A stretch of DNA of 64,000 nt from an archaeon (GTDB lineage: Archaea > B1Sed10-29 > WALL01). The notes beneath the pieces are model-generated. The model was not told the origin of the DNA and made no database searches. It worked only from the letters and a program-made list of their open reading frames with translations. The position numbers and the translations under genes were made by a program. The stretch is from the NCBI GenBank assembly GCA_042584585.1, contig JBHOSQ010000005.1, positions 7,526 to 71,525 on the forward strand, written 5' to 3'. How positions within the stretch are numbered: the stretch's first letter is position 1; each line of letters begins with the position of its first letter. Below are positions 1-35,158 of this stretch, one piece after another.

Positions 1-183
1 TTTAAGTGCGTAAGGAAGGAATCCCCTGAAGGTGTTCCCATTTACCTCCATAATTGCATCATCATCACAGCCTTCGTAGCCTTTCCCTAAATTATGAATT
101 ACTCTTTTCAGGACCCCCACGAAGTGATTCTTTTCAAATTCCTTGTAGTCCATGTGATTTTCCCCAAATTCTTTGTAATCCAT
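1..183 (-). CDS. hypothetical protein, 5'-partial at window edge (N-terminus MDYKEFGENH/MDYKEFEKNH tandem decapeptide)
   Basis: ATG at 183-181 preceded by an AGGTGA Shine-Dalgarno-like motif 7 nt upstream. Open to the window edge. Lies in ~40% GC DNA, unlike the rest of the window. Absent from the ORF track because no stop codon falls inside the window. Confidence 0.3.
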   Translation of the reverse strand, partial: MDYKEFGENHMDYKEFEKNHFVGVLKRVIHNLGKGYEGCDDDAIMEVNGNTFRGFLPYALK

Positions 184-197
184 ATACTCACCTTTAT

Positions 198-2138
198 CTA
201 AAGTGGTCTTGCCCCAACAACTTCCATGCCATCTGCTTCTAAAACTACCATCATAGGTTTATAGATACCCTTTTTAGTTTTAAAGTAACTAACTTTAACT
301 AGTCTCCCGCCTTGTGCCAAATCAGGCCGGAGCTCGCCTTTTGACGCCGTTTCTATCACCTTAGACTTAAGCACTGATTCACTCCAACCATACCTATCGA
401 AGAAGTCCACCAAGTGTTTTCCAACGATGTGGTACTTGAACGTTCCCTGTTTTAGGTAAACGTCTTTTGTGCCGATATTCATTTTATTGAACTTGCTGCT
501 TCCTGCTTTTGCCGCGGCGTCCATCACTTCAAACGACTTCTTTGCGCCCCAGATTTGCCCGGCAAACTGCGCGGGGTTGTGCCATGCCGTCGTCGCGAGG
601 CCAACAACCAAGTCACTCGCGTAGTACCTGACCTTGTCCGCCGCGTCCTGTTCGAACAAGTTCACGTTCTCGACAATCACGCAGCCCAATGCGTCCCCAG
701 CGTCCGCAACCAGCGACGGAATCGCGCCGCCGAACCCCTGGATGGCTCCACCCGCAAAGCTAGTGGCCGTCCAAAGCTGGTTCGCCGCACTGGTGGTGAG
801 GCTGTTCCATATCCCCTGCACGGGATTCACGTTGGCGTTCAACTGCTTCGCAAGGGTTTGCTGGCCAACGTCAATCGCGTCCTGTTGATAGTCCACACCC
901 GTCAAGTAAGTGCTTGCGTCGGCTCCAGTGTCCACCACGAATTGCCCCGCAGTGCCGAACCAATTCGCCACCCCCCGCGCGAAGTTGCTCGCGGGATTCT
1001 GCTTGGACATCACACGACACCGGTCAGTCGCCGAAAACCCGGCCATGTGCTTCATTTGGTCGTAATATGGCTCGTCACGCATCTTCGAAATCGCGTTTTC
1101 CTTCAAGTCATAAAAACCGCGGGTGACGCGCTCGCACTTGGCTACGCCCCCAACTAATTGGGAAATAGCTTCCGTGTCCATGCGGCTGAACCGCAGGTAA
1201 TTAGAAGGATTAATGTAGTCGTTAAACTCTTTGTTCACAACGCTGCAAGGCGGCCGGATTATGGATTGTTGACCCGAAACCCAAAGGGCGTGGTCTTGCG
1301 TTTCGGCAGAAGACAATGACTCAGCGGCCTCGACTTGTTCGAGGCGCCTCCATAATTCAGTGTCGTCATAGTTCAGCACGGCAACCAAGGCAGAAGCAAC
1401 TCTTCCAGAAAGCGAGTCGCTTATTGAGGCAGAGTCGAAAAGCTCTCCTGCCTCTTGCATAGCAAGGCGCTCCATTTCTTGCTGGTACTCCGCGTTGGCT
1501 GCTGCTGCAGCTTCCTCGTTTTCTTTCATGTGTTGTTCTGCTTTTGCGTTCAGGCCGTGTTGGTAGCTTGTCCATTGTGTTGTTGAAATTGTGTCGCCGC
1601 TTGAGCTTCCGGCGCATTCGCCCCCGAAAAAGTTCCACGAAAGCGGGACGCCCATGCACTTGTATGCGTCGCCGTGGAAGCACCGCAGCCCGCCACTCGG
1701 GGCGCACTGCATTTCCGTGCCTTTGCACGAGCCGTCCTGGAGGAACATCGTGCCTTGCGAAGAGCCAAAGCAGACCCAGCGGACGTTGTTGATGCATTGC
1801 TCTTCACTCGGTGAACACGTTGCGCCGGTCAACGCCAGCGACGCCGGCGCAAAAAAAGTGTTGATGGTGTAAAAGCCGTCGCCGTCAACGGAAAAAGTGC
1901 ACGAGCCGCCGCCAAACACGCCGGTCACACTGCTGCCCGATTGACCCAAACACGAGACGTCTATTGAGGCGCCCTCGTCGCTCCAGACCGCGAGCGTACC
2001 TGCGCCGGGAAAGTCTTTGGTGAAGCAGCCCGGCTCTGTGCCTGTGACACCTGTGCCGGTGAATTGTATGCATTGCGCTGCGGCAACCCCGACAAGAAGC
2101 AGTACTAGCAGTGCCCTCGCGTGATTTCTCCCCCTCAC
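198..2138 (-). CDS. secreted Cys-rich protein of unknown function (646 aa)
   Basis: N-terminal signal peptide ending AAAQC (lipobox-like). About 14 Cys in the first 200 aa, then an Ala/Glu-rich helical middle and an unrecognised C-terminal domain. A TTTAAATA TATA-like element lies ~26 nt upstream of the ATG. Confidence 0.55.
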   Translation of the reverse strand: MRGRNHARALLVLLLVGVAAAQCIQFTGTGVTGTEPGCFTKDFPGAGTLAVWSDEGASIDVSCLGQSGSSVTGVFGGGSCTFSVDGDGFYTINTFFAPASLALTGATCSPSEEQCINNVRWVCFGSSQGTMFLQDGSCKGTEMQCAPSGGLRCFHGDAYKCMGVPLSWNFFGGECAGSSSGDTISTTQWTSYQHGLNAKAEQHMKENEEAAAAANAEYQQEMERLAMQEAGELFDSASISDSLSGRVASALVAVLNYDDTELWRRLEQVEAAESLSSAETQDHALWVSGQQSIIRPPCSVVNKEFNDYINPSNYLRFSRMDTEAISQLVGGVAKCERVTRGFYDLKENAISKMRDEPYYDQMKHMAGFSATDRCRVMSKQNPASNFARGVANWFGTAGQFVVDTGADASTYLTGVDYQQDAIDVGQQTLAKQLNANVNPVQGIWNSLTTSAANQLWTATSFAGGAIQGFGGAIPSLVADAGDALGCVIVENVNLFEQDAADKVRYYASDLVVGLATTAWHNPAQFAGQIWGAKKSFEVMDAAAKAGSSKFNKMNIGTKDVYLKQGTFKYHIVGKHLVDFFDRYGWSESVLKSKVIETASKGELRPDLAQGGRLVKVSYFKTKKGIYKPMMVVLEADGMEVVGARPL

Positions 2139-2199
2139 ACAGTACTAGTGAGTTTTGGTGTATTTAAAACCTGTGCAGAAAACGTTTAAACGTTTTCTG
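2139..2199 (-). terminator. 24-bp perfect palindrome (CAGAAAACGTTTAAACGTTTTCTG) spanning the stop codon, followed by a U-tract and the TATA of the next gene
   Basis: On the minus strand the order is: 12-bp stem hairpin (2176..2199) containing the TAA stop, then GGUUUUAAAU, then the ATG of the 646-aa gene at 2138. Confidence 0.4.
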
Positions 2200-2569
2200 T
2201 GCATTGGTCTTCCCAGCCGTCGTAGTGTCCACCCAGCGCATCACAACAGCTTTCTATGCCCCCATATAAGAGGTTGCAGTTCGCCGGTTCTTTGGAGGCA
2301 TAAACGTCTTCCTTAAGCGCGCTTCTTGCAGCTTCTTCACATCCATAGCGTTTTGAAGAATCATCGATGTCTTTACAAAACGCCGTGCTTTTGTATTGAA
2401 TTGCTTTTTCGAGTTTGCACTCATATGTCTCGCAGAGTTCACCACTTAAGGTTTCTGATTCAGTTCGTTCTTCGATTCCGATGGTTGCGTTTGGACTGCT
2501 AATACAGCCACCAAAAAACAACGTTAGGAGTAATACCCCCATAACTAGATTTTTTGTCCTCTCTCCCAT
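2186..2569 (-). CDS. small secreted Cys-rich (lipo)protein, 127 aa
   Basis: Signal peptide with an FFGGC lipobox-like motif and at least 9 Cys. GGTGA RBS upstream of the ATG. Its stop codon sits inside a 24-bp perfect palindrome. Confidence 0.5.
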   Translation of the reverse strand: MGERTKNLVMGVLLLTLFFGGCISSPNATIGIEERTESETLSGELCETYECKLEKAIQYKSTAFCKDIDDSSKRYGCEEAARSALKEDVYASKEPANCNLLYGGIESCCDALGGHYDGWEDQCTENV

Positions 2570-2626
2570 AAGGTCACCTCACTAAAAATGGGTTAAGGAA
2601 ACTATTTAAAACTTTCATAAAAACGT

Positions 2627-5600
2627 CTAGATATTTGCCACTGGAGCGTCCGCGAATCTAATCTCGTTGTTAGTCAAGTCAATCTCAAGGCCAAAGAACT
2701 GGATGACGTTGTCGTCCTCTTCTTCTTCATCCTCGGGAGTTCCGCTCATCGGCTTGACGCCGAACGACTCGCTGTCTGACTTTGTCTCGTTCGTTGGAGT
2801 GTAAATCATGAAGCCAGTTAGTTGTTGGGTGCTTTCGGAAGAGCACGTAACTTTCCAGCTCATTGAATCGTACCCGGAGTTTCCAGCGATAGGCCCAATG
2901 TGTCTTGGGTTCTGATAAACAGAATCGATAGAACAGTCAGTAGTGAGATTGACTTTGACATCACCGAAGGATACGTTTTCTTCGTTGTAGTTGGTAACGT
3001 ATACTTTAGCCATGAATGGCGTCAGGGTAATCGCGTCCTCTGGCAATATCAAGTCCACCTTGAGGTTCGTGTATATACTCGTTACGTTGACCTGGACTCC
3101 TACTGGAGTGCCGTACATGCTCGTGTTGTCCATTGCGCGGATGTAAAGCGTGCTCACGCCTTCGGGCACGTTCTTGAACTCGTGCTTGTAGCTCGTGCCG
3201 TTATTGGCGCCTGTTACCGCGTCACTCCATTCAACGCCGTCGAACGAGTACTCGAATTCGTCCAAGTCAGCGTCGTCGCTGTGGAACGTCACGTTAACGT
3301 CGTCAATGTCGTACTGCGGCGTGCCAGTCGGCGCCGTGATAAGTGTCGTTGGACCCTGGTTGTTCACATTCGACCAAACCATAGAGACGTTCTCGTTGCC
3401 CGCCCAGTCAACCGCCTTGATGTAAGTGTACCTAACGCCCTCACTCACGTTATAGAACCACGCTGGGCTTCCGCCGGGATCCAGTTCCCACTCGCCGTCA
3501 TCAAGCTTCTGGTAAAACGCCTTCACGTCGCTTGAGCCAGAACTGTAGAGCTCCACCATGGTAGTGGTTCCAGTGTAATTGCTGTTGTTGCCACCACTCA
3601 TGGTCAACCCCGGAGCAACCGTGTCCACTGTGATGTTCACGTTCGCCTCGTCCCCAAGGTTCCCGAGCATGTCATAAGACCGCACGTAAAGCGTGTGGGC
3701 ACCATCCGATAGACTGAACGTGTGCGAGTCGCCGCTCTCGACGCTCCAGCCCCCGCTGTCGGCCTGGACCTCGTAGTAGTCCACGTCTGCCTGGTCGCTG
3801 GCGGAGTACTCAAAAAACCCGCTCGTGACATTTGCACCCTCGTTGGGGTAAGTAATCATAATCGTTGGCCCGCTTTGGTCAATCTCGAAGTCAACCGATA
3901 CCACGTCGCTCCAAAGGACGAAGTCGGTGCACTTCAAGTAAAGCGTGTGCGTTCCCTCAAGCGTTTGGTTGGTTATGGAAGTGACGTTCTGAACGCCGCT
4001 CGTCACGTTGAAGTCGCCGTTCCAAACGCCGGCATCCATTTTGTACTGGCACTTCAGCACGGTCTGCTCCGCGTCCGTTGCAGTGACGTTAATTTCGTCG
4101 ACGAACAAGTGGTACGAATCAACAACTGGCTCGTTTATCACTGCAGTCGGCGGGCTGTTCAGTGCCGACGTGGCGTTTACCCTGACGTGGTCCTCACCGG
4201 TCTCGGTGGAGTCAGACGCCCGTATCCTGAGCGTGCGCACCCCCGAGGGCAAGAGCGTGAAGTTGTAATCGTAATCTGTGTCCGCGCTTATTCCCGTTAT
4301 CCCGGTGTCTTTCCACAAGCCGCCGTCCACGGCGTACTCGAACTTGACGACGTCGTCGTCTGGCGTGGTGAAGTTCACGACCGCCCAGTTGTTCGCAGTA
4401 ACCGTGTCGTTCGCGGGCGAGGTAATGTTAACATCCGGCGCGTGCGAGTCAACGAAAACAGTGACGTTGTCCTCGGCGCCTTTCTTGCCGGCTTCGTCGA
4501 CGTGAAGCACGTGCAGTACGTGCCAGCCCTCTGCCAAGTCCTTGAACGCGGATGGCGACCCATTCGGGTCCTTGCACCACCGCTCGTTCGCGGTGTCGTT
4601 CCAGGTGTTTAGGTAAGGGGTCGGGCAGATTGCGCCGTTGTCCAGCTTGATGAGTGAGTGGTTCACGTCCGTGGCAGTGGTGTTGTAGTACACGCCAATG
4701 TTTGCGTACCCGAAGTGCGTGCTGTTGTCCGGAATGGTTATGAAGATGTCGGGCGGGCCGCTGTCTGGAGTAATTGTTATGTCCGCTGTGGCAGACGCAC
4801 CTGCTAAGTCGTCGTCCTTCACGAGAAGAGACACTTTGAAGGTGCCGGTCAGGTTGAATTTGTGGGTGGTTACCGGGTCGGTCGTGTTCGTGAGCGTGCC
4901 GTCGCCCCACTGCCACTCGTAGAAGGCAATGCTGCCGTCCGAGTCGGTGCTGGCCGAGGCGTTGAACGTGAGTTGGTGCTCTTTTTCACCAGTCAGGGGC
5001 GCGGCAAAGTTCGCGTTCGGTGGAGTGTTGCCGGGCGCGTCCGTGATTGTGACGTAGCTCCAGTCGTTGAAGCACTTGGGCACTTCCACCTTGACGTATT
5101 GGAACGTGGTGTTGTACCCCGGAATGGTGTAGGTGTGGGTCGCCCAAAGCTGGTGGCCGCCGTCGCCCATGCTGGTGTCCAGGCTCTCAAGGCTCTGCAT
5201 CCCCGCCTGCACCCAACTAATGTTGTTGTTTGAAGTGTAAACCGTGACGTTGTCTTTGCAGCTGTGGCTTCCGCCGGACTTGACGTCTACGTTGATGCTG
5301 ACGTTTTGCGTGATGCTGACTTGGAGGTCGTGGACGTGCCACTTCTGGTACCAGTTGCAGCAGTCAACAGTCCCGCAGTGTGAGTCGGCTTGGTTGGGCG
5401 AGTAGCCTATGCCGTTGTTGCAGCCATCGCGCCATAGTGACGTGTACGTCTTCATCGGCTGGGGGCCGCTGCCTACTCCCGTAGTGGGGCTGAATGCCGT
5501 GTAACTCTCGGGGTTGGCCGAGTCAGGCATGTGAATCATGATTTGGGCGATTTTTTCGTCCGTGACGAGCGCGAAGCGCGTTGGAGTGTCGGGGTTGCCG

Positions 5601-6049
5601 ACTCCTTTCTCCGCCACTTTGTGGAAGAATCCGCCTGCCGAAGCGAAGATTTCTACTTTGCTGGTGTCGCCGTGCGGCGTCACCTCGAACTCGAAGCGCG
5701 TGAGGCCGTCGGTCTCGACTTTGAAGATGTGGTTGTTGTCCAGGTTGCCGCATTTCGTGCCGCTGCAGAACACTTCTTCCGCGTCCGACACGTCTGGCCC
5801 TGTATCAATTGGCTCCGGCGTCGGCTCCGGAGTAGCTTCCGGTGTTGGCACTGGCGTTGCTGTTGGCTCGGGAGTGGGTGTTGGTGTCACCTGCTGGATT
5901 TTTACTTGGTTGTTGACCGCGTCAATCTGGATTTGGAGTGTTTGTAGCAGCTGGCTGAAGTCCGGGCCGATGAAAGCAAAGGCTGGGCTTAGTAAAATGA
6001 TAGACATTATCACCGCAACTACGCATCTCCGCATAATTCTCATATGCAA
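2627..6049 (-). CDS. large secreted surface protein with Pro/Thr linker and multiple PKD/Ig-like beta-sandwich repeats (1140 aa)
   Basis: Signal peptide, then TPTPTPEPTATPVPTPEATPEPTPEP linker. An FYEWQWGDGT PKD-type motif and many N-x-T/S sequons. Own TATA (TTTATATA) ~25 nt upstream of the ATG, consistent with a leaderless transcript. Confidence 0.75.
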   Translation of the reverse strand: MHMRIMRRCVVAVIMSIILLSPAFAFIGPDFSQLLQTLQIQIDAVNNQVKIQQVTPTPTPEPTATPVPTPEATPEPTPEPIDTGPDVSDAEEVFCSGTKCGNLDNNHIFKVETDGLTRFEFEVTPHGDTSKVEIFASAGGFFHKVAEKGVGNPDTPTRFALVTDEKIAQIMIHMPDSANPESYTAFSPTTGVGSGPQPMKTYTSLWRDGCNNGIGYSPNQADSHCGTVDCCNWYQKWHVHDLQVSITQNVSINVDVKSGGSHSCKDNVTVYTSNNNISWVQAGMQSLESLDTSMGDGGHQLWATHTYTIPGYNTTFQYVKVEVPKCFNDWSYVTITDAPGNTPPNANFAAPLTGEKEHQLTFNASASTDSDGSIAFYEWQWGDGTLTNTTDPVTTHKFNLTGTFKVSLLVKDDDLAGASATADITITPDSGPPDIFITIPDNSTHFGYANIGVYYNTTATDVNHSLIKLDNGAICPTPYLNTWNDTANERWCKDPNGSPSAFKDLAEGWHVLHVLHVDEAGKKGAEDNVTVFVDSHAPDVNITSPANDTVTANNWAVVNFTTPDDDVVKFEYAVDGGLWKDTGITGISADTDYDYNFTLLPSGVRTLRIRASDSTETGEDHVRVNATSALNSPPTAVINEPVVDSYHLFVDEINVTATDAEQTVLKCQYKMDAGVWNGDFNVTSGVQNVTSITNQTLEGTHTLYLKCTDFVLWSDVVSVDFEIDQSGPTIMITYPNEGANVTSGFFEYSASDQADVDYYEVQADSGGWSVESGDSHTFSLSDGAHTLYVRSYDMLGNLGDEANVNITVDTVAPGLTMSGGNNSNYTGTTTMVELYSSGSSDVKAFYQKLDDGEWELDPGGSPAWFYNVSEGVRYTYIKAVDWAGNENVSMVWSNVNNQGPTTLITAPTGTPQYDIDDVNVTFHSDDADLDEFEYSFDGVEWSDAVTGANNGTSYKHEFKNVPEGVSTLYIRAMDNTSMYGTPVGVQVNVTSIYTNLKVDLILPEDAITLTPFMAKVYVTNYNEENVSFGDVKVNLTTDCSIDSVYQNPRHIGPIAGNSGYDSMSWKVTCSSESTQQLTGFMIYTPTNETKSDSESFGVKPMSGTPEDEEEEDDNVIQFFGLEIDLTNNEIRFADAPVANI

Positions 6050-6126: not shown

Positions 6127-7017
6127 TTATGTAAGGTCTATGTGGGCTGTGAGCGTAGAGCCACTAGCCGGAGAGTGTGTACTGGCTCCTTTCTCGTTGC
6201 ATAGTACTGCCGTACCGCCCCCGGCACTTATTTCTACGAGGTATACGCCGGTATTCGTGCTTATGGCATTCGTTATGCGGGTTGTACTCAAATCAAACTC
6301 TAGTTTATCGTTAGTACCAAGATTTTTACCTGAGCCCTCCGAACTCCATCCAGTAGTGTCAAGCCCAGTAAGGCTGGGAATGAACGTTGTTGAACTATCC
6401 GACGTTACGAAAATGTTTGGAGCTGGATTACTGGTTTGGGATTTCTCAAAGTTCAGGGTGAGAGTTGCCGAGCTTATAGGATTAGTACCTACCTCATTGA
6501 AGTCAAAGAGCAAGTACGCCTTAAGTCCTCCACCAATAATTGTGTCTACACTGCAGACTGGGAATAAACCCGTTTGGGCTTTGTTTTGGTCGTTGTCGCC
6601 GGGATAAAACAGCTCCCACGTCACTTTTTCGGGCGCGCCTTCTCCGTACTGAATCCATCCAGTCTCGGTTTGGAGCCATGCCGTCCGCGACGCAGCGTCG
6701 AACATGAGCGTGTACTGGTCTTGTAGCATGCACGTTTCCACTGCAGCGGTCGAGGGCGCGTCAGTACCCCCCTTCGTCATCTCTCCCGTGTAGTACGTGA
6801 TTGACGATGGGGCAGTCAACGGGTCGTTGCCCAAATACGGGTTGGTGTAGCCCTTCAGGCCAAGGTGGTAGTCCCGGCACTCAATGATGTCGATTTGCAC
6901 GCCCCGCTGCGTCGCCGCAGGCGTCAGCACGGCGTTCAGAATCAACAAAACGCTTGCGATGAACCCCATCACCGCAATTATGATCAATAAGTACTCAACT
7001 GCTCCCTGGCCCTTCAT
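6127..7017 (-). CDS. class III signal peptide (archaeal type IV pilin-like) protein, 296 aa
   Basis: N-terminus MKGQGAVEYLLIIIAVMGFIASVLLIL: a short basic leader, Gly, then Q+1 and Glu followed by a hydrophobic helix. Confidence 0.7.
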   Translation of the reverse strand: MKGQGAVEYLLIIIAVMGFIASVLLILNAVLTPAATQRGVQIDIIECRDYHLGLKGYTNPYLGNDPLTAPSSITYYTGEMTKGGTDAPSTAAVETCMLQDQYTLMFDAASRTAWLQTETGWIQYGEGAPEKVTWELFYPGDNDQNKAQTGLFPVCSVDTIIGGGLKAYLLFDFNEVGTNPISSATLTLNFEKSQTSNPAPNIFVTSDSSTTFIPSLTGLDTTGWSSEGSGKNLGTNDKLEFDLSTTRITNAISTNTGVYLVEISAGGGTAVLCNEKGASTHSPASGSTLTAHIDLT

Positions 7018-7059
7018 AACTGAAAATAAGCACGATAGCTATAAAAACATTCCTTTCGT

Positions 7060-7518
7060 TTGCCTTCAACGATGCGGGGTCAAGTAACCATCGAATACAT
7101 CCTTGTCCTAGTCATAATGCTGGTCATACTCGCAACCGTGTCCATACCAACGATTGAGCAAATCGAGGTCGACGTCACCGACACCGGCAACGCAATCAAC
7201 CTGGCGGCAGTCCAGCAAAGAATCGCGTCAACCGCAAGGGAAATGAGCCTCACGGGATGCGGTTCAACCAAAAACATCACTGTCCACATCCAGCAAGACC
7301 TCTTCACACCACTAACAATCACGTGGGACGGCAACAAAGTCGGGGGCCAACTAAAATTGATGAACGGCACCGACCGCGACCTCAAAGACCTCACGTTCCC
7401 AGACACGATAAAAGTCGAGGCCTCCAACAGCACACAATTCCATTACTGGGACCTTCGCTTCACCAAAGACTGCGGGACGTTCACTTCATCAGGCTGCATA
7501 GGGGACTGCGGCATATGA
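7060..7518 (+). CDS. class III signal peptide pilin-like protein
   Basis: N-terminus MPSTMRGQVTIEYILVLVIMLVILATV. RG|Q cleavage-site-like motif with E at +5. Confidence 0.7.
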   Translation: MPSTMRGQVTIEYILVLVIMLVILATVSIPTIEQIEVDVTDTGNAINLAAVQQRIASTAREMSLTGCGSTKNITVHIQQDLFTPLTITWDGNKVGGQLKLMNGTDRDLKDLTFPDTIKVEASNSTQFHYWDLRFTKDCGTFTSSGCIGDCGI

Positions 7519-7898
7519 AAGGGCAAACCGCGCTCGAAATGGTCCTCCTCGCCGCACTCATAATCGTCGTCGCCGGAATGGTATACGTCTCCTACTCCGG
7601 AGAGTCAGCAGACACCATCGCTGAAACCACCATCCGCACCCAAGCCAACATGATACTCGCCAAAGGCGCACTCACAAACGCCTCCTGCGCCAACGCCCAA
7701 CTAATCTACTTCAACGAAACAACAACCAAACGCCGCTACGAATTAACAATAGTCCCAGACTACTGCGGCCCGTTCCTCTTCACCCAGCCCGCCCGCGACA
7801 ACATCCAGGGAAGAATCAGCGAAGCCCTCGGCTGCCGCTACGAAGACAACGGCACATGCCAAGGCAAGAATTATATAGTCTCGCTCGCAAAGACATAA
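7515..7898 (+). CDS. class III signal peptide pilin-like protein (128 aa)
   Basis: ATG at 7515 overlaps the upstream TGA (ATGA). N-terminus MKGQTALEMVLLAALIIVVAGMV. The ORF track extends it to 7257, but that upstream part lies out of context in GC-rich shadow sequence. Confidence 0.7.
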   Translation: MKGQTALEMVLLAALIIVVAGMVYVSYSGESADTIAETTIRTQANMILAKGALTNASCANAQLIYFNETTTKRRYELTIVPDYCGPFLFTQPARDNIQGRISEALGCRYEDNGTCQGKNYIVSLAKT

Positions 7899-7908
7899 CG
7901 GGGAGAAA

Positions 7909-9042
7909 TTGGAGGGAGAGGCAAAAGCGCTATGCATTGCTGCGGCAGCCATAGGGCTAGCCATCGCGCCGGACGCCTCGCTTGTCCTCGGCTGCCTCGC
8001 CGGAATCGTCACCGGATTAATCCCCGGCCTGCACCCAAACACCTTCCTCCCAATGGCCAGTGGCACTGCATTCATAATCGGCCTCGCCGTCTCCCATTCG
8101 TTCTTCGACTTCCTGCCCGCCATAATGCTCGGCGCACCCGACGAAGCCACCTCACTCTCAGTGCTCCCGGGCCACAAGATGCTGCTCCGAGGAAAAGCGC
8201 TCGAGGCCTTCCGCATCACCATACTCGGCGGGCTCTTTGCCGGAATACTCGCAGCGCTCTTCATCCCGTTCCTCGGGTTCGCAAACCAGCCCATTCTAGT
8301 GCCGATTGTTTTGGTATTCACGCTCGCCACAATGCTCGCCAACGCAAAACACAAGACAAAAACAATTCTGGTGATGATTGCCGCGGCATTCATCGGCCAC
8401 CACGCGCTCGCGGCCAACGCATTGCCTGCCATGCTTGCCGGGTTCTTCGGCACCAGCACAATCATTTTTTCGCTCGCCACCCGGCCGGTGATTCCGCCGC
8501 AGCTCCCGCACGCAAAAGCAAGAATCACCCACCGCGAGGCCGCGTTGGCGGCGGTCGCGGGATGGCTCGCGGGACTTTTTCCCGCGGTCTCGCCGTCAGT
8601 TGCAGCAATGGCTCTTTGCCCAAAGATGAAGCACCGAGAATTCCTCGCGGTGCTCGGCGGAACCAACACGGTTTACGCAATCGCCGCAATACTTGCAATT
8701 AACATTGTCGGCAGGCCGCGGAGCGGAGCCGCCATTGCGGTGGGGCGCCAAGACTTTTTGTTCGTCGCCGGCTCGGCGCTCGCGGCAATCGGGATTTCGG
8801 CGTGGCTCGCGTGGCACTTGTCAAAACCCTTGGTGCAGTGGTTCAACAAAGTCAACCACCGCGCGGCGTCGGGAATTGCGCTGATAATCGTTGTTGGGAT
8901 TGCGGGGCTGGGCGGCACGACCGCACTGGCCTTTCTCGCTGTTTCCACACTGGTTGGCCTGGTGTGCCTCGCGTGGGGAGTGAGGCGCAGCACGTGCATG
9001 GCAAGCCTTTTAATCCCGGTCCTGCTTTACTACTTATTGTGA
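7909..9042 (+). CDS. polytopic membrane protein, DUF112/TctA-like (377 aa)
   Basis: About 10 predicted TM helices. Motif GIVTGLIPGLHP fits the G-x3-G-x2-P-G-x-G-P TctA/DUF112 signature, and a second internally duplicated half is present. See the finding on its alternative reading as an aspartyl peptidase. Confidence 0.5.
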   Translation: MEGEAKALCIAAAAIGLAIAPDASLVLGCLAGIVTGLIPGLHPNTFLPMASGTAFIIGLAVSHSFFDFLPAIMLGAPDEATSLSVLPGHKMLLRGKALEAFRITILGGLFAGILAALFIPFLGFANQPILVPIVLVFTLATMLANAKHKTKTILVMIAAAFIGHHALAANALPAMLAGFFGTSTIIFSLATRPVIPPQLPHAKARITHREAALAAVAGWLAGLFPAVSPSVAAMALCPKMKHREFLAVLGGTNTVYAIAAILAINIVGRPRSGAAIAVGRQDFLFVAGSALAAIGISAWLAWHLSKPLVQWFNKVNHRAASGIALIIVVGIAGLGGTTALAFLAVSTLVGLVCLAWGVRRSTCMASLLIPVLLYYLL

Positions 9043-9395
9043 AAATCAGCCAGACCGCAGTCGAGTTCATTCTTGAAACCGCGAAGAATGCGTACCCCCG
9101 CGAGTTCGTGGGGATGCTCCGCGCCAACGAAGGTGTGATTACCGAAATCTTGATTATTCCGGGGAGCAAGTTCGAAAAGAATTATTCATCAGTCCTCACC
9201 AACATGGTGCCGCTGGACCCCTCGATTGTCGGCTCGGTGCACTCACACCCAGGCCCGGCGAGGCCGTCGCGCGCGGACCTGCGGTTTTTCGAGAGGGGCA
9301 TGGTTAACCTCATCGCTGGCTACCCCTATGAGTTCGGCAACCTCGCGGCTTTTGACGCTCACGGCAGCCCGACAAGCCTAGAAATAGTTAAATAG
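9039..9395 (+). CDS. JAMM/MPN+ family metalloprotease (about 118 aa)
   Basis: Motif VHSHPGPARPSRAD matches H-x-H-x7-S-x2-D, with the conserved Glu (EF) upstream. GTG start at 9039 overlaps the stop of the preceding gene (GTGA). The ORF track start at 8802 is probably an over-extension. Confidence 0.7.
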   Translation: MKISQTAVEFILETAKNAYPREFVGMLRANEGVITEILIIPGSKFEKNYSSVLTNMVPLDPSIVGSVHSHPGPARPSRADLRFFERGMVNLIAGYPYEFGNLAAFDAHGSPTSLEIVK

Positions 9396-9417
9396 CCCCG
9401 GTGCATATTCACAAGCG

Positions 9418-10050
9418 ATGCGGGGCTCTCTTACGCTCGAGTTCATACTCTCGCTAGTCCTGCTCATAGCGACGGCAGGCGGGTTTTTGATGCTGTCGTA
9501 CGGCCAAATCGAGAACAGCGTGATTGCCTCGACGCAGTACAAGGCCGAGGCCATGGCAATGTCCACCGGCTCCGCGCTGACGCACTTTTTCGCGACCGAG
9601 CCCGAGTACGGTTCGTACATGGAAATGGACTTCAGGGGCTTGCCACAAGAGGCGGCCGGCCAGTCCTCGTTCGGCATGCCCGGGTTCGGGGTGTACGCCA
9701 GCGGGCAGGAATGCAACGTGAGCATTGATATCGACAACAGCATGGTCATCGTAAACATACTTGTCTACCGAATCGAGTCCAGCGAGCCGGAACTCGTGAC
9801 GGCAAAGTACCCGTTCGCAAGTGGGGTAAGCGCCGGAGCCTGCAGTGGCGAAATAACTCTTGTCAAGACCGTGGGCTGCGGCAAGGGCATAAGCGTTTCC
9901 ATGCAGGCGGATGGCGGCTACTTGATTAACGAGCTTGGGATTAGGGCGTTTTTGCCTGGCGGGCCGACGGCTTCGCCCCTGCCATTCACCGGTGACAATG
10001 GCGAATCTACACCCATACCAACTCCGCCTGGGGGGTGGCAACTGGCATGA
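9418..10050 (+). CDS. class III signal peptide pilin-like protein (210 aa)
   Basis: N-terminus MRGSLTLEFILSLVLLIATAGG. Confidence 0.7.
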   Translation: MRGSLTLEFILSLVLLIATAGGFLMLSYGQIENSVIASTQYKAEAMAMSTGSALTHFFATEPEYGSYMEMDFRGLPQEAAGQSSFGMPGFGVYASGQECNVSIDIDNSMVIVNILVYRIESSEPELVTAKYPFASGVSAGACSGEITLVKTVGCGKGISVSMQADGGYLINELGIRAFLPGGPTASPLPFTGDNGESTPIPTPPGGWQLA

Positions 10051-10403
10051 AAGGCCAAATCTTTGTCGTGGACTTGATGTTCGCACTCGTAATCATTGTG
10101 CTCGCGATTGGCATAACCACGCAGGCGTTCGATTACCACCTGCAGCAGACTGCGTCAACGGTCGAGCACGCCAAGATGCAGCAGCTCGCGATTGACGCCG
10201 CGGCAGTCACCTACTACAAGGGGGCTGCTTCTTACTATTGGGGGCTCGAAGAAAAGATAGGTCCCTTCTGCGGCGCCCAAGGGGGCGCGGTCAGCATAGG
10301 CTACACGCTGGAAGAGTCTCCCGTGGCCGGCAATACCTGCGTCGGGAGCACGCGCGGCACGGGCGACAACAAAGTGGAGGTGTTCGTCTGCAGAAGGGAG
10401 TAA
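10047..10403 (+). CDS. class III signal peptide pilin-like protein
   Basis: ATG at 10047 overlaps the upstream TGA (ATGA). N-terminus MKGQIFVVDLMFALVIIVLAIG. Confidence 0.7.
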   Translation: MKGQIFVVDLMFALVIIVLAIGITTQAFDYHLQQTASTVEHAKMQQLAIDAAAVTYYKGAASYYWGLEEKIGPFCGAQGGAVSIGYTLEESPVAGNTCVGSTRGTGDNKVEVFVCRRE

Positions 10404-10648
10404 TCTTCACTGCCGAAGCCATCTACGTAATCGTGGTGGTCTTCGCCGCACTCATTGTTTTCTTTGCGTCGCTTCCATCGGTCAATGTCCCGAGCTATGA
10501 CTCGGTCCAGGCCATGAAAGTGATCCACGACATGGGCGAAGAGCAGACCATCAAGCCCCCGCCGGGCTACAACACCACTGGCTGCGAGGGCAAGACCACA
10601 GCCATGCTGGACTACTACAACGAAACCCTGGAGGTGTGCATGACTTGA
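10388..10648 (+). CDS. pilin-like ORF with no canonical start codon (...LQKGVIFTAEAIYVIVVVFAALIVFF...)
   Basis: Pilin-like hydrophobic N-terminal segment in the frame of ORF 10238..10648. There is no in-frame ATG/GTG/TTG between the TTG at 10238 and the KG|V motif. Boundaries are uncertain. Confidence 0.3.
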   Translation: MQKGVIFTAEAIYVIVVVFAALIVFFASLPSVNVPSYDSVQAMKVIHDMGEEQTIKPPPGYNTTGCEGKTTAMLDYYNETLEVCMT

Positions 10649-11331
10649 AGGGATTCATGGGCACCGCGGCCGCAATGCTGTTCGCGTTCTCGCTGGTCAC
10701 CGCAGGGTATTCATTCATGCTCTCGCAATCCGACCTGAGCTATTCGTCAATGGCGGGACCCGTCGTCGAAAGCACGCGCTGGGCCGCCGAGGCAGAGCTG
10801 TTCGAGTGCGCCACAACGGGCGACACGAACTTCAACGGAGACGCGTACAAAGAAGCGATTGGCATGAACCTGGTCGGCGTCAATGGCAATGCCAGCACCA
10901 TAAACAATTACGGGCTTGGCTCAATGAAGCTGTCCGTCCACTTGGAGCGCGACTATTCCCCAACAATCCACTTAAAACCCGGACCTCCCCTGCAGTGGAC
11001 TGTCTGTGACACCGAAGCAGATTCGCTCACCTTCACGCTGTCGGGCGACCTCCCCGCGTCCGCGATGTCCATCCAGAAACTCTTGGGGGCGGGGGTTTAC
11101 TCCTACACTCCTGCTCCTGGAGAGTCCGGCACTTACTGGATTTCTGGCAAGGACTCTACCGGCACGGTATACAGCAACAAAGTAACTGTGACAGCCGCCG
11201 CGGCGCCAACCCCAACGGCAATTCCGACTGCCATCCCGACAGCAATGCCGACTGGGATACCGACTGCGTTCCCAACAGCAATGCCAACCGTGCTGCCGAC
11301 AGCCTTCCCACCATTCGTACCCTTTTTCTAG
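10636..11331 (+). CDS. class III signal peptide pilin-like protein with C-terminal (x-P-T-A)n repeat
   Basis: Start is GTG at 10636 or TTG at 10645, giving MKGFMGTAAAMLFAFSLVTAG. C-terminus is APTPTAIPTAIPTAMPTGIPTAFPTAMPTVLPTAFPPFVPFF, encoded by a 12-nt tandem repeat. Confidence 0.6.
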   Translation: MHDLKGFMGTAAAMLFAFSLVTAGYSFMLSQSDLSYSSMAGPVVESTRWAAEAELFECATTGDTNFNGDAYKEAIGMNLVGVNGNASTINNYGLGSMKLSVHLERDYSPTIHLKPGPPLQWTVCDTEADSLTFTLSGDLPASAMSIQKLLGAGVYSYTPAPGESGTYWISGKDSTGTVYSNKVTVTAAAAPTPTAIPTAIPTAMPTGIPTAFPTAMPTVLPTAFPPFVPFF

Positions 11332-30779: not shown

Positions 30780-32942
30780 ATGGCTGACATAAAGCTTAAG
30801 GTCCAGGAAGCGATGCAGAACGACGTAGGCCGCGGAATAGTGCGCATCGACACCGAGACACGCGAGGCACTCGGGCTCACGTCCGGAGACATAGTCCAGG
30901 TCAAGGGCACCACCGACACCGTCGGCGTCGTCTGGCAGTGCTACCCACAGGACGAAGGCCTCAAAATCATCCGCATGGACGGCCTCATTCGCCAAAACTC
31001 CGGAGTCGGCATCGGCGACTACGTCAAAATCGAGAAGACCGAGCTAAAGCCAGCCACAAAAATAACTCTCGCGCCATCAAAGCCCGTGAGGTTCTCACCA
31101 GGCTTCGAGTCATACGTCCAAAAGCGACTAATCGGCAGGCCCCTAATCAAAGGCGACCGCATACTCATTGGTGTGTTCGGCACAAGCCTCGTCATGATAG
31201 CAACCAAAACCACTCCAAAAGGCTTCGTGCAAATCACGCAGGACACTCAAATCGAGCTCAAGACCGAGCCAATCAAAGAAATAGTCGGAGTCCCCCAAGT
31301 CACTTACGAAGACATCGGCGGAGTCAAGGACGAAGTCCACAAAGTCCGCGAAATGATTGAAATCCCACTCAAGCACCCCGAACTGTTCGAGCGCCTCGGA
31401 ATCGAGCCCCCGAAAGGCGTCCTCCTCCACGGCCCGCCGGGCACAGGCAAGACACTTTTGGCAAAGGCAGTGGCAAACGAAAGTGACGCCAACTTTATTT
31501 CCATCCAGGGCCCAGAAATTATTTCCAAGTTCGTGGGCGAAGCCGAGGAAAGGCTCCGCCAAATCTTCAAGCAAGCAGAAGAAAACGCGCCAACAATAAT
31601 CTTCATCGACGAAATCGACGCCATCGCGCCAAAGCGCGGCGAAGTCACCGGCGAAGTAGAGAAGCGTGTCGTCGCCCAACTATTGGCCTCAATGGATGGG
31701 CTGCAGACCCGCGGCAACGTAGTCGTAATCGCGGCCACCAACCGAGTCAACGCAATCGACGAAGCGCTGCGCCGCCCAGGGAGGTTCGACCGAGAAATTG
31801 AGCTCGGCGTCCCCGACCGCAAGGGCCGCAAGGAAATCCTGCAAATTCACACGCGCAACATGCCGCTTGAAGGGGTTGACCTGGACAGGATGGCAGACAT
31901 CACCCACGGCTACGTTGGCGCCGATGTCCAAGCCCTTGCCAAGGAAGCGGCCATGAAAACACTGCGCCGCCTAATCCCCAAAATGAACCTTGAGGGCGAG
32001 GACGGCATCCCCACCGAAGTCCTGGAAAACCTTAAGGTCACCAAGGACGACTTCATGGACGCGTTCAGGGAAGTCCAGCCCAGCGCCATGCGCGAAGTCC
32101 TCGTAGAAGTCCCGAACGTGAAGTGGAAGGACATCGGCGGCCTCGACGACGTCAAGAAGCGGCTCAAGGAAGCCATTGAATGGCCAATCAAAAACCCCAA
32201 GATGTTCACGCGACTCGGAATCCGCCCGCCGAAAGGAATTTTCCTGTTCGGCCCGCCCGGCAGCGGCAAAACCATGCTCGCCAAAGCAGTGGCAACCGAG
32301 AGCGAGACAAACTTCATCGTGGTCAAAGGCCCGGAACTCCTGTCCAAGTGGGTTGGCGAGTCCGAGCGTGGCGTGCGAGAAATCTTCCGCAAGGCCCGCC
32401 TTGCCGCACCCGTAGTAATCCTGTTCGACGAAATCGACGCGCTCGCGCCAAAGCGCGGCATGCATGCGGGCTCAGCAGCTACGGAAACAGTGGTCAACCA
32501 ACTGCTGACCGAATTGGACGGCGTTGAAGAATTGAAGGACGTGGTAATCTTAGCAACGTCAAACCGCCCGGACATCGTCGACCCAAGCCTCTTGAGGCCG
32601 GGCAGGTTCGACAGAATGATCTTCGTTCCGGCTCCGGACGCAAAGTCGCGCCTCGCAATCTTTGAGGTGCACACCAAAAAGATGCCTCTCGCCAAAACAG
32701 TGAAGCTTGAGACGCTCGCGTCTTCCACAGACGGGTTCTCGGGCGCAGACATAGAGGGCGTGTGCCGCGAGGCAGCGATGAACGCGCTGCGCCACAACAA
32801 GAAAGCCAAAGAAGTAACGGAAAAGGACTTCGAGAAAGCGATGAAGGCGGCGAGGCCGTCCATCCAGGAAGATGACTTGAAGCGCTACCACGGGTTCATG
32901 AAAGAGCACAAGTCAATAGACACGGCGAGCTACATCGGCTAG
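30780..32942 (+). CDS. Cdc48/VCP-like AAA+ ATPase (double AAA domains)
   Basis: N-terminal double-psi barrel, then two AAA modules (GPPGTGKT; GPPGSGKT) with second-region-of-homology motifs. Confidence 0.9.
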
Positions 32943-33520
32943 AGGAACGGCAGCAGCAGGTAAGCCGCGGCCGCGAGCGTGAGGAACCACACAACCGGGT
33001 TCCACTGCAGTACTTTGTTCCCGTCCAGCGGCGGGAATGGAATCAGGTTGAAAGCTGCCAAGAAAAAGTTTATGTACGCGCCCCAGTTCCCGATGACCGC
33101 GAGCAAAGTGGTTGAGGAATAGCTGAGTGCGAGGAACCCAACGCCGACACTGAGGTTAACCAACGGGCCAGTCACCGCAATCAATCCCTGTTCCCGGAGC
33201 GTGAGGCGCTTGCCTCCAATCATCACCGCGCCCGGCGCAGCAAAAATCAGGCGCCCCCCAGTCATTATCGCCATGGCCAGTGCCAACGCAAGGCCTTGCC
33301 ACCACATCCTGAAGAACGCGATGCACCCGAACTTCTTGGCAACCCACCTGTGGCCCATTTCGTGGAAGACAAACCCGGTCCCGAGCGTCAGGAGTATAAT
33401 CGGGAAGCTCGTGGTCAATGCGGGCAGCAGGCCGTGTGAGTACACCGACGCCATGGAAAACGCTAGGCTAAGAGTGACCCACGAAATGAGTATGTGCATA
33501 AGCTCCTGGTTTTCCATCAA
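32939..33520 (-). CDS. M50 (site-2 protease) family membrane metalloprotease
   Basis: HEMGH HExxH motif within a TM helix, plus an LDG motif; 193 aa polytopic. Confidence 0.7.
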
Positions 33521-33573: not shown

Positions 33574-33750
33574 ATGAGTAAAGACCTTTGGAAAGATAGC
33601 GCTGCACAGCTGTCCATGGAGCTAATCCTGGTGCTGGCAGCAGTTCTCGCCGTCGCACTGCTGGCTGTTTCGTCCCTACGGGGCACGGCAGTGGACGCCG
33701 AGAAAGTAGGCGGGAGGACCGCCAAAAAAATCCTGAAGGAGCTGAAATGA
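33574..33750 (+). CDS. small pilin-like protein (58 aa), class III/Flp-like
   Basis: MSKDLWKDSAAQLSMELILVLAAVLAVALLAV. Below the ORF-track size cutoff. Its TGA overlaps the next ATG. Confidence 0.5.
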   Translation: MSKDLWKDSAAQLSMELILVLAAVLAVALLAVSSLRGTAVDAEKVGGRTAKKILKELK

Positions 33751-33935
33751 TGGGGAGATTGATTGATGACGACCGCGGACAAGTCTCTGCAGAGCTCATC
33801 GTGGTCATCGCCGCGCTTCTTGCGGTGGCGATGTTCTTCGTGAGCAGCCTGAACGACACGGTGACACAGGCTGGCGACAAGATGCAGGACAAGACCGGCG
33901 ACGTCTTGAAACAGATAGACGGCATTGGGAAGTGA
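33747..33935 (+). CDS. small class III signal peptide pilin-like protein (62 aa)
   Basis: MMGRLIDDDRGQVSAELIVVIAALLAVAMFF: RG|Q with E at +5. Confidence 0.6.
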   Translation: MMGRLIDDDRGQVSAELIVVIAALLAVAMFFVSSLNDTVTQAGDKMQDKTGDVLKQIDGIGK

Positions 33936-34312
33936 TTTCCGTGCGCGGCCAGGTCTCGCTTGAGTTCATGGTAGTGCTAGCCGTATTCCTCGCCGCCATG
34001 GCGCTTTGGCTCACCGGGGTAAACCAGGCCAGCGGCGCAATCACCGTGGCGCTTGGCGCGAAGCAGTCCGTGCTCGCGGCCGAGCGCCTGGCGTCAACAA
34101 TCAACGCGGTGTGCGTCATGGGCAGCGGCAACTCGCTCGACACCGAGGCCTATGTCGCCGGCAACGCAAGCGTCATTTACGACAGCGCGTTGGTGCTGGA
34201 CACAACCGAAAAAACAGTTTACTGCGAGTTCAACGACTTCACTGTTTCAGGCAAGCAAGAGTTCACCGCCACAAACACCGATGGATTCGTCGAAGTCACA
34301 CGCAAAGAGTGA
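33932..34312 (+). CDS. class III signal peptide pilin-like protein (126 aa)
   Basis: MISVRGQVSLEFMVVLAVFLAAMALW. Confidence 0.65.
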   Translation: MISVRGQVSLEFMVVLAVFLAAMALWLTGVNQASGAITVALGAKQSVLAAERLASTINAVCVMGSGNSLDTEAYVAGNASVIYDSALVLDTTEKTVYCEFNDFTVSGKQEFTATNTDGFVEVTRKE

Positions 34313-34631
34313 ACGACACGGGCTCGTAATCGAGCTCGGGGGTCACGGCGGTGCGCTCGACAGTGGCACACTTATCCCCGTCGCCGCTGTGGCCAATTAG
34401 TTCCCGCAATCCCTCAAGGCAATCTTCGTCGTGCTCGCACTTCTGCTTCATCGCGATTTGGGCGTAGTCGCCCGCCTGCTTGTAGAGCACAACGTCGCTG
34501 TAGTCTTCCGCGGCAACCGAAGACAGCGCCGCGATGAACGCGACGAAGCAAAGCAACGCGACCATCGCCTCAAGGCTGAACACAAACCCTTTACCAGACA
34601 GAAAGCGCAACAGCTTCACCCCCCTCCTCAT
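34296..34631 (-). CDS. class III signal peptide pilin-like protein (111 aa)
   Basis: ...SGKGFVFSLEAMVALLCFVAFIAAL. Confidence 0.6.
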   Translation of the reverse strand: MRRGVKLLRFLSGKGFVFSLEAMVALLCFVAFIAALSSVAAEDYSDVVLYKQAGDYAQIAMKQKCEHDEDCLEGLRELIGHSGDGDKCATVERTAVTPELDYEPVSFTLCV

Positions 34632-34956
34632 CTAAAAACACGAGCCGCTTGATTCCGTCGCCATTAATGGAGTAATTGTGGTGGCAGTACGTGGCTTCTT
34701 TCCCAATCTGAGCAGAGTCAATGGTCTGCGGCACCACCCTGCCAACGCTCTGGTCGACTTTGGCGAGGCACTTCGGGTCGTTAATCAGGCGGTCGCTCGC
34801 CGCAATCAATTCTTTCTGTTTTTCGGCGGTGAAGTGCATTGCCGCCGCCTCCCCTGTGACGAGCTGCGTCCATAAGAGGCACAGCTGCACGAGGACTAGC
34901 ACGAGCACGAACGCGATGCTGGCGTCAATCATCCAAACTTGGCCTTTTTCCAACAT
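34591..34956 (-). CDS. class III signal peptide pilin-like protein
   Basis: Internal start MLEKGQVWMIDASIAFVLVLVLV. Confidence 0.55.
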   Translation of the reverse strand: MLEKGQVWMIDASIAFVLVLVLVQLCLLWTQLVTGEAAAMHFTAEKQKELIAASDRLINDPKCLAKVDQSVGRVVPQTIDSAQIGKEATYCHHNYSINGDGIKRLVFLDEEGGEAVALSVW

Positions 34957-35158
34957 ACCACCTCGCGTATGACCCGTTGCCGCGGGACTCGCCGAGCGCA
35001 ATCACTGCTTTTTGCTTGCCGGCTTCCTGCGACGCCGTGATTATCCCGAGCAATTCTTCGTCGCCGAGCGCTTCGGCTGCTCGGGAGTGCGCGTTCATCA
35101 CCACGGAGACGAGGGCAATCATCATCATGACTGCGAGCATTGCCTCAAGAGTGTTCAT
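34925..35158 (-). CDS. pilin-like small protein (77 aa) lacking the K/R-G leader
   Basis: MNTLEAMLAVMMMIALVSVV has a type IV pilin-like Glu at +5, but no basic-Gly leader and no upstream in-frame start. Confidence 0.4.
   Translation of the reverse strand: MNTLEAMLAVMMMIALVSVVMNAHSRAAEALGDEELLGIITASQEAGKQKAVIALGESRGNGSYARWYVGKRPSLDD

Follow-up and report, generated by a model that had tools for sequence, protein, structure and literature searches.

The Epd pilus of Methanococcus maripaludis is the described system closest to the gene cluster considered here, cluster A, which occupies positions 6127–11331 of a 64,000-nucleotide stretch of archaeal DNA (contig JBHOSQ010000005.1, assembly GCA_042584585.1; the whole stretch is referred to as the window). 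Epd-like filaments form clade 1 (Makarova 2016), which equals System 1 of the 2026 type IV filament (TFF) census. The prepilin peptidase EppA requires Gln at position +1 of its substrates, and EpdB–E of M. maripaludis have KGQ or RGQ cleavage sites with an acidic residue at +5 (PMC4371748). The Epd pilus genes are essential for natural transformation of M. maripaludis. A transposon screen in strain JJ found epdA, C, F, J, K, L and eppA, together with MMJJ_13020, which encodes an OB-fold protein with one transmembrane (TM) helix, and its neighbour MMJJ_13030, whose TctA-like product has 11 TM helices, each of the two being essential for transformation (PMC10133366). The TctA homologue of Methanoculleus thermophilus is likewise essential, and the authors propose the TctA-like protein as the DNA transporter that replaces ComEC in archaea (Fonseca et al. 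2023, PMC10133366). Archaea have no ComEC; the OB-fold and TctA-like proteins of this one screen, encoded at a locus apart from the pilus genes, are the sole prior candidates for carrying DNA across their membrane during natural transformation.

Cluster A comprises nine tightly packed genes at the coordinates first reported for them. Seven encode pilin-like proteins (P1–P3 and P6–P9), one a TctA-like (DUF112) polytopic membrane protein and one a JAMM/MPN+ zinc metalloprotease. Judged from gene order and sequence motifs, cluster A very probably represents the distal transcription unit within a type IV filament operon of the Epd-like kind (clade 1 or System 1), in a DPANN archaeon related to Iainarchaeota. 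Its content is well supported, with six co-directional minor-pilin-like genes (P2, P3 and P6–P9), one divergent gene (P1), and the TctA-like gene and coupled JAMM gene embedded among them. The pilus type itself is known; what appears to be new is that a competence-linked TctA-like gene, which has an OB-fold partner in relatives, and a JAMM gene are built into an Epd-like pilus operon. The literature search yielded no paper reporting TctA, OB or JAMM genes embedded in a pilus operon, nor a JAMM or DUF2101 link, in agreement with the preliminary description of this DNA, to which JAMM and DUF112-like genes among pilins were an undescribed arrangement; a link between archaeal TctA-like proteins and type IV-like pili, through transformation, has already been published (PMC10133366). 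Among the rows listed in the Makarova 2016 supplements, which do not include methanococci, there is no TctA, DUF112, JAB or COG1784 entry, and an earlier, unnamed record of the association may exist in that census.

Place of the gene string in related genomes

The nearest named relatives are Candidatus Diapherotrites and Iainarchaeum metagenome-assembled genomes (MAGs). For the comparison, 80 genome loci around TctA-like genes were taken, and the window proteins and the machinery proteins of one of these loci, L001, were mapped on them; statistics refer to 82 non-redundant loci. L001 is a 268-kb Diapherotrites scaffold and the best match among the loci, its TctA-like protein being 75% identical to that of the window. 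The gene order in L001 is T2SSE, T2SSF, T2SSF, a Class_IIIsignal pilin, a 60-aa pilin, Peptidase_A24, P2, P3, TctA, JAB, P6, P7, P8 and P9, and beyond P9 comes the Asn-synthase/PRC/ABCE1/Pelota flank that the window also has. The string also stands right behind T2SSE, two T2SSF genes, short pilins and A24/Arc_PepC in L009, L010, L017, L026, L030, L057, L077, L078, L091 and other loci. The recurrent order is ATPase, long T2SSF, short T2SSF, one or more pilins, A24, P2, TctA, JAB and more pilin-like genes, with P3 as an optional member and, in most relatives, DUF2101 and a TM-OB gene added, in this order, between P2 and TctA. It is kept in Iainarchaeum and other DPANN MAGs whose TctA-like proteins are just ~30% identical to that of the window. 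According to precomputed Pfam assignments, L091, from the Joint Genome Institute (JGI), has the full form, with T2SSE, two T2SSF genes, three short pilins, A24+Arc_PepC, two pilin-like genes, DUF2101, an OB (tRNA_anti-codon) gene, TctA, Prok-JAB and four pilin-like genes, and the operon ends at the same flank from Asn-synthase to ABCE1. In Hydrothermarchaeota (L020, L023, L048 and L087) a pilin is followed by A24/Arc_PepC, four pilin-like genes, DUF2101, OB and TctA, without JAB.

Within the 64-kb window no homologue of the ATPase, the T2SSF platform or the A24 peptidase is found at E<1e-3, which confirms the first observation that a FlaI/PilB ATPase, a platform and an A24 peptidase are missing. 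Two explanations had been offered for this, a minor-pilin locus whose machinery is elsewhere and a distinct surface-structure system. The former fits the data. The latter is not supported; the synteny with a pilus operon of relatives that had been named as its refutation is for the most part present, the gene string of relatives lying directly behind the ATPase, platform and A24 genes. Since relatives carry the string behind an ATPase, a split platform, Flp-like pilins and an EppA-like peptidase, cluster A is not a new system devoid of machinery; because the machinery half is absent from the locus and from the rest of the window, it would have to act in trans.

The TctA-like gene is linked to pilus genes in 22 of the 82 loci, and the linked genes fall in three clades of a rough neighbour-joining tree. 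The median number of same-strand class-III-like open reading frames (ORFs) within 5 kb of TctA is 6.5 in the 22 linked loci versus 0 in the 60 unlinked ones, 53 of which have none. JAB and upstream machinery occur together in 14 loci, each without the other in four, and neither in 60 (Fisher p = 3e-9). Of the 18 loci with a JAMM gene, 14 have A24, ATPase and two platform genes directly upstream in the same orientation and two are cut by a contig end; the remaining two are L016, whose ~10 kb upstream flank has no machinery, and the window. Because 14 of the 18 also carry the A24, ATPase and platform genes, JAMM is an addition to the machinery and not a replacement for it.

The resemblance to the Epd pilus (EpdA–E, EppA, EpdJ/K/L) lies in the many minor pilins, the KGQ/RGQ sites and the acidic +5 residue of cluster A, and, in relatives of the window, in short Flp-like pilins, a long A24+Arc_PepC peptidase, an ATPase with two platform genes and a DUF2101-type membrane protein. 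The platform of relatives is split, as their two T2SSF genes correspond to the N-half and the C-half of UpsF/ArlJ; their peptidase is the long A24 form with the Arc_PepC domain, and ~60-aa Flp-like pilins and at least five minor pilins are present. DUF2101 genes occur in L009–L011, L030, L087 and L091 and are absent from the window, and the DPANN proteins match DUF2101 at 7e-21. We presume that DUF2101 is the same family as arCOG05786, on the assumption that COG4025 maps to DUF2101. The entries considered from the 2016 survey count arCOG05786 (COG4025, 4 TM) among the pilus-associated membrane proteins of clade 1 loci (Makarova 2016). In contrast to M. maripaludis, where the OB/TctA pair is separate from the pilus genes (MMJJ_13020/13030 versus MMJJ_082xx), the TctA-like gene, the JAMM gene and, in relatives, the OB gene are located inside the operon, and the machinery half is absent from the window. 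The likeness to the Epd pilus is one of layout and motifs.

The seven pilin-like genes are P1 (6127–7017, minus strand; 296 aa; MKG/QGAVEY), which is divergent from the operon, and, on the plus strand, P2 (7072–7518; 148 aa; MRG/QVTIEY), P3 (7515–7898; 127 aa; MKG/QTALEM), P6 (9418–10050; 210 aa; MRG/SLTLEF), P7 (10047–10403; 118 aa; MKG/QIFVVD), P8 (10388–10648; 86 aa; (L)QKG/VIFTAE; probable CTG start) and P9 (10645–11331; 228 aa; MKG/FMGTAA; TTG start). They range from 86 to 296 aa, not from 128 to 296 aa as first given. All have a short basic leader ending in [KR]G and then a hydrophobic helix of ~20 residues, P8 only if it starts at CTG 10388. The +1 residue is Gln in P1, P2, P3 and P7, Ser in P6, Val in P8 and Phe in P9, with Glu at +5 in P1, P2, P3 and P6 and an acidic residue at +6 in P7 and P8. 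In four of the seven the +1 Gln is accompanied by an acidic residue at either +5 or +6, the substrate pattern of EppA-type prepilin peptidases. When the whole window was scanned on both strands for a strict N-terminal motif, 12 matches came up, six in cluster A, four in a second cluster at 33.7–35.0 kb and two false positives. The cleavage motif [KR][GA] and the hydrophobic helix are kept in orthologues of P2, P3, P6, P7, P8 and P9 from six loci whose TctA-like proteins are 42–75% identical to that of the window.

Ratios of nonsynonymous to synonymous substitution (dN/dS) against the L001 orthologues are 0.12–0.46 across all eight plus-strand genes (P2 0.28, P3 0.46, JAMM 0.12, P6 0.30, P7 0.26, P8 0.22 and P9 0.32), indicating purifying selection and therefore functional genes. 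The hidden Markov model search proposed as a check is less favourable. Matches of P1 (15.1 bits, E 0.022), P2 (18.2 bits, E 0.0023) and P3 (16.7 bits) to Pfam Class_IIIsignal (PF04021) stay below the gathering score of 23.7 bits, and the Pfam search gives no Class_IIIsignal match for P6–P9; because the model is only 27 positions long, its threshold is a weak test. The recognition of seven class III signal peptide genes holds nonetheless, through the motif conserved in six diverged loci and the purifying selection. By these sequence features the seven are type IV pilin-like proteins with class III signal peptides, for which cleavage by an A24 peptidase and incorporation into a filament are predicted.

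The members of the set differ in how widely they are conserved. P2 is the most widespread, with orthologues directly after the A24 peptidase in ~20 loci, including those of Hydrothermarchaeota. P3 orthologues are found in L001 and L008–L011, P6 orthologues follow JAMM in the same loci, and the P7 family recurs downstream of JAMM in 16 loci; P6 has no Pfam match. The N-terminus of P1 is of the same type as that of the 109–135-aa candidate major pilins of relatives, with a long C-terminal extension added; P1 matches the 109-aa pilin of L001 (phmmer 2e-5), and a 54-aa counterpart stands at the same position and strand in L001. P8 has no ATG, GTG or TTG start, and a CTG at 10388 lies behind GGAGGTG (window 10376–10403). 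In L001 the P8 frame opens just 21 nt before the KG codons, with no ATG, GTG or TTG between the in-frame stop and KG; the codon aligned to the start is CTG in the window and L001 and GTG in L008, and L010 and L011 have ATG starts. P8 most likely starts at CTG 10388, as judged from this alignment. P9 has a variable C-terminal part with a P/T-rich tail and weak Big_9 and PT matches in Pfam; its orthologues, 177–418 aa long, are the last gene of the operon in relatives.

The TctA-like protein, its OB-fold partner and the JAMM protease

The TctA-like gene (7909–9042, plus strand, TTG start) encodes 377 aa that match Pfam TctA at E 3e-24 (85.7 bits versus a cutoff of 28.9, profile positions 4–422), in line with its first assignment as a TctA/DUF112-like membrane protein. 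There are 73 archaeal homologues, and in Methanosarcinales, Hydrothermarchaeota and Hadarchaeota MAGs homologues match at ~30–36% identity. A wider profile search gave 917 matches, of which the 120 listed were MAG proteins or proteins without a name. The AlphaFold2 model is all-helical, with a predicted local distance difference test (pLDDT) score of 94; structure searches returned no informative solved relative, and the best structural match was a transporter. The protein shares the TctA Pfam domain with the TctABC transporter, from which it differs in its shorter length and in its context of pilins rather than solute-binding proteins, and neither TctB nor TctC is found in the window cluster or in the Pfam gene calls of L001, L003, L005, L087 and L091. 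The annotation 'tripartite tricarboxylate transporter permease' is probably misleading for these archaeal proteins. The sequence LLRG/KALEAF in TctA was considered as a hidden class III site and rejected, being a family-wide loop motif that is present also in loci without pilins. In one pilus-unlinked clade (L003, L012, L013 and L024) a gene for a 599-aa ATPase with PIN, weak T2SSE and KH matches lies ~3–5 kb upstream of TctA on the opposite strand, and DNA polymerase B and NAC genes adjoin TctA.

In 40 of the 82 loci a TM-OB gene lies no more than 700 nt upstream of TctA. Its product, of 110–130 aa, combines a single TM helix at the N-terminus with an OB fold, and the loci are from Iainarchaeota, Aenigmatarchaeota, Woesearchaeota, Undinarchaeota, Hadarchaeota, Hydrothermarchaeota, Methanosarcinales and a Hodarchaeaceae MAG. 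In Hadarchaeota and the Hodarchaeaceae MAG (L032, L044, L051, L062 and L081) the OB genes upstream of TctA are about twice as long (222–250 aa). Of 42 TM-OB proteins, 39 match the nucleic-acid-binding OB family tRNA_anti-codon (best E 5e-16), and nine, including that of L009 (9646–9978), have sub-threshold Pfam matches to DUF4131 (best 9e-4). We take DUF4131 to be the N-terminal TM and OB region of bacterial ComEC. By description, the TM-OB and TctA pair of relatives matches the pair required for transformation of M. maripaludis: both TctA-like proteins belong to the Pfam TctA family, are ~380–400 aa long and lack TctB and TctC, the TM-OB gene of relatives is directly upstream of TctA, and there is a functional association with Epd-type pili. 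The window locus differs from MMJJ_13020/13030 in having no OB gene, an extra N-terminal helix in TctA and an added JAMM gene, and the two are likened by description, not by sequence.

No OB gene is found in the 64-kb window, and the whole subclade to which it belongs (window, L001/L007, L008 and P0002–P0011) has neither DUF2101 nor the OB gene, so that P3 abuts TctA. The TctA-like proteins of this subclade have an extra N-terminal helix of ~22 residues (residues 1–22, window 7909–7980) relative to relatives with a separate OB gene. By eye the helix resembles the OB anchor (GLLLASLSG versus GVVLASLG); in a search with a profile of the OB N-terminus, the TctA N-termini of P0011 and L008 are among the first non-OB matches, at a weak E of ~0.1, and the window's protein does not score. 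The extra helix may be a remnant of an OB-gene deletion in which the anchor was fused to TctA.

The JAMM gene (9039–9395, plus strand, GTG start) encodes a single domain of 118 aa. Its identification as a JAMM/MPN+ protease stands, with a Prok-JAB match of 7e-10 (Pfam; 39.2 bits versus 25), homology over the full length to AfJAMM (AF2198, PDB 1oi0/1r5x) at 5e-18 and an intact zinc-site motif E...HSH-x6-S-x2-D (window 9237–9278); the catalytic motif is kept in 18 of 18 operon copies. The JAMM motif was described as E-x(n)-H-S/T-H-x7-S-x-x-D, and AfJAMM, a single domain of ~120 aa, has the same E...H-S-H...S-x-x-D site (PMC300881). The x6 spacing is found in the window, L001, L008–L011 and L030; the other operon clade and AfJAMM have x7. 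The window's gene further differs from that of AfJAMM in being fixed beside a TctA-like gene inside a pilus operon with no ubiquitin-like or E1-like gene nearby: the Pfam calls of L001, L091 and the window cluster contain no ubiquitin-like (ThiS/MoaD/SAMP) or E1-like family, and no pilin-like protein of cluster A ends in Gly-Gly. Two candidate roles were rejected. A RadC-like competence protein is not indicated, as the Pfam match is to Prok-JAB only, with no RadC match at E<=1, and the best solved relative is AfJAMM. Replacement of the prepilin peptidase by JAMM or TctA is contradicted by the A24/Arc_PepC genes that accompany JAMM in relatives.

Possible functions of the operon

The explanation that we favour, as reasonably probable, is that a pilus or pseudopilus of the Epd-like type is linked to a TctA-like DNA-uptake conduit, JAMM being a lineage-specific partner. 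DNA uptake as the function is held more tentatively and falls short of being probable. In such an apparatus the pilins would be processed by an A24 peptidase encoded elsewhere in the genome, and the ATPase and platform would assemble them into a pilus or a short pseudopilus. In other organisms filament assembly by an ATPase and a platform is established, as is EppA-type processing of pilins with Gln at +1. The filament would bring extracellular DNA to the membrane, the OB-fold partner, where present, would receive the DNA outside the membrane, and the TctA-like protein, normally together with this partner, would serve as the conduit. JAMM would act at the cytoplasmic face of TctA on some protein; each specific role that could be named for it has a low probability. 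The arrangement would be analogous, not homologous, to bacterial ComG (ComGA/GB/GC–GG, ComC) with ComEA/ComEC. The operon of relatives likewise has an ATPase, a platform, one major and several minor pilins and a prepilin peptidase, and also a membrane-anchored module of DNA-binding OB type, weakly similar to DUF4131 in nine of 42 cases, next to a polytopic membrane protein. Unlike ComEC, the proteins here lack both the ComEC competence domain and the beta-lactamase nuclease domain, and TctA is of an unrelated fold family, so that the analogy would be functional.

The same gene pair inside Epd-like pilus operons of two distant archaeal groups is independent comparative evidence that the pilus and OB/TctA work together. 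DUF2101 and JAMM are thereby added as candidate parts of the uptake apparatus, and the compact operons could serve heterologous expression or complementation tests.

Several points weigh against the favoured explanation. The window locus has no ATPase, platform, A24 peptidase, DUF2101 or OB domain, so that the putative DNA-binding partner is absent here, and 60 of the 82 TctA loci have no pilus genes beside them. If the OB protein is the DNA receptor, its absence implies that this lineage uses another DNA receptor or uses the apparatus differently. Nothing explains a role of JAMM in DNA uptake, and more distant JAMM homologues occur in unrelated contexts. The orthology with MMJJ_13030 rests on the shared Pfam family, the size and the OB–TctA gene pair, not on sequence comparison. 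The DNA-channel role of the TctA-like protein is a hypothesis of the M. maripaludis authors only, and the main text of their paper makes no mention of the piliation of the TctA mutant (PMC10133366).

A bolder form of the explanation, of rather low probability, is that in DPANN archaea of the Iainarchaeota type, and in Hydrothermarchaeota in a version lacking JAMM, a single operon codes for the whole DNA-uptake apparatus. Its parts would be a pilus or pseudopilus of the Epd-like type and a DUF2101/TM-OB/TctA translocon, with JAMM as a cytoplasmic partner and the TctA-like protein as the archaeal counterpart of ComEC. Genome-reduced DPANN cells would then take up DNA as a source of nucleotides or genes, in the manner of Patescibacteria, which use type IV pili and ComEC for this, and the lineage of the window would be a derived one that had lost the OB domain by deletion, with the anchor fused to TctA. 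DPANN archaea lack many biosynthetic pathways, and the observations suggest that they may be scavengers of DNA as Patescibacteria are.

Alternatively, and again with a rather low probability, the operon builds an adhesive Epd-like pilus only, the TctA-like, DUF2101, OB and JAMM proteins being accessories for assembly, anchoring or quality control and the transformation defect in M. maripaludis being a consequence of a pilus defect, with no DNA passing through TctA. Structures for attachment are an expected need of DPANN cells, and TctA and JAMM are interleaved with the pilin genes through 4-nt overlaps. This alternative keeps its standing mainly because OB is missing from the window's lineage, and the subclade without the OB domain has kept TctA–JAMM under purifying selection. 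The presumed DUF2101 family, arCOG05786, is already among the pilus-associated proteins of clade 1 in the listed entries of the 2016 survey, and the piliation of the TctA and OB mutants goes unmentioned in the main text of the M. maripaludis screen (PMC10133366). An accessory to assembly accounts less well for the 60 of 82 TctA loci away from pilus genes, which fit a separable module better than a structural part, and for the OB proteins, 39 of 42 of which are of the nucleic-acid-binding type and nine of 42 of which are weakly similar to the ComEC N-terminal DUF4131. The published studies of piliation in M. maripaludis that were considered name no TctA gene, which is only an absence of mention.

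It is improbable that the TctA-like protein is an ordinary secondary transporter of small solutes and JAMM a housekeeping protease of the desampylase type, both inserted into a pilin operon in this lineage and sharing no function. Such a reading draws on membership in the Pfam TctA family, the transporter as best structural match, JAMM homologues at ~45% identity in unrelated contexts and the many TctA loci unlinked to pili. It conflicts with the lack of TctB and TctC in the loci with Pfam gene calls, the place inside the pilin string that is kept at ~30% TctA identity and in three clades of the tree, the translational coupling of TctA and JAMM by a GTGA overlap, and genetics in two methanogens, which links the family to transformation and not to solute uptake (PMC10133366). 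A surface-fibre system complete in itself, able to do without an ATPase, a platform and an A24 peptidase, with JAMM, the TctA-like protein or both processing or exporting the pilins, is hardly credible: it would suit the lack of machinery genes in the 64-kb window and the fact that JAMM enzymes cleave after Gly and pilin leaders end in Gly, but machinery genes lie directly upstream in the same orientation in 14 of the 18 JAMM loci.

Gene layout, flanking regions and the second pilin-like cluster

The packing with 4-nt overlaps in the preliminary description is real at four junctions, ATGA at 7515 (P2/P3), GTGA at 9039 (TctA/JAMM), ATGA at 10047 (P6/P7) and TTGA at 10645 (P8/P9); the 5' end of P8 shares 16 nt with the 3' end of P7. 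P1 and P2 are separated by a divergent gap of 54 bp (7018–7071), which holds an element read from the sequence, TATAAAAA (7040–7047), ~25–30 nt from both start codons and a possible shared archaeal TATA box for two leaderless transcripts, one in the P1 and one in the P2 direction. With such a shared TATA candidate in the gap, the string from P2 to P9 may be a transcription unit separate from that running from the ATPase to A24, even in L001.

Common housekeeping genes of archaea (ABCE1, Pelota, RFC and CTP synthase) flank the window cluster. On the left, positions 1–6049 form a minus-strand block of surface proteins with lower G+C (0.51–0.53 in the first 4 kb), encoding proteins of 1140 aa, 127 aa and 646 aa, the last Cys-rich. 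The 1140-aa protein (2627–6049, minus strand) has one Pfam PKD domain and Ig-like domains. It had been described as a giant PKD-repeat protein immediately downstream; instead it lies beyond P1, upstream of the plus-strand operon, has a single PKD domain and is not a conserved neighbour in relatives. Because this block stands where L001 has the A24 peptidase and ATPase half, the operon seems to have been split here by a rearrangement or an insertion.

The second pilin-like cluster (33747–35001, both strands) was recognised by the motif scan and weak Pfam matches. It contains a 62-aa Flp-like pilin (33747–33935, plus strand), a P2 paralogue (33932–34312, plus strand) and two minus-strand pilin-like genes (34296–34631 and 34591–35001). 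The 62-aa pilin matches Pfam Class_IIIsignal at 5e-4 and Flp1_like at 2e-3, both below threshold. The cluster is a possible source of the major pilin, which would link it to cluster A. The region may extend to 35744, with 32939–33520 as a further part, and a Peptidase_M50 gene adjoins it; an M50 peptidase was also hit in the M. maripaludis transformation screen (PMC10133366).

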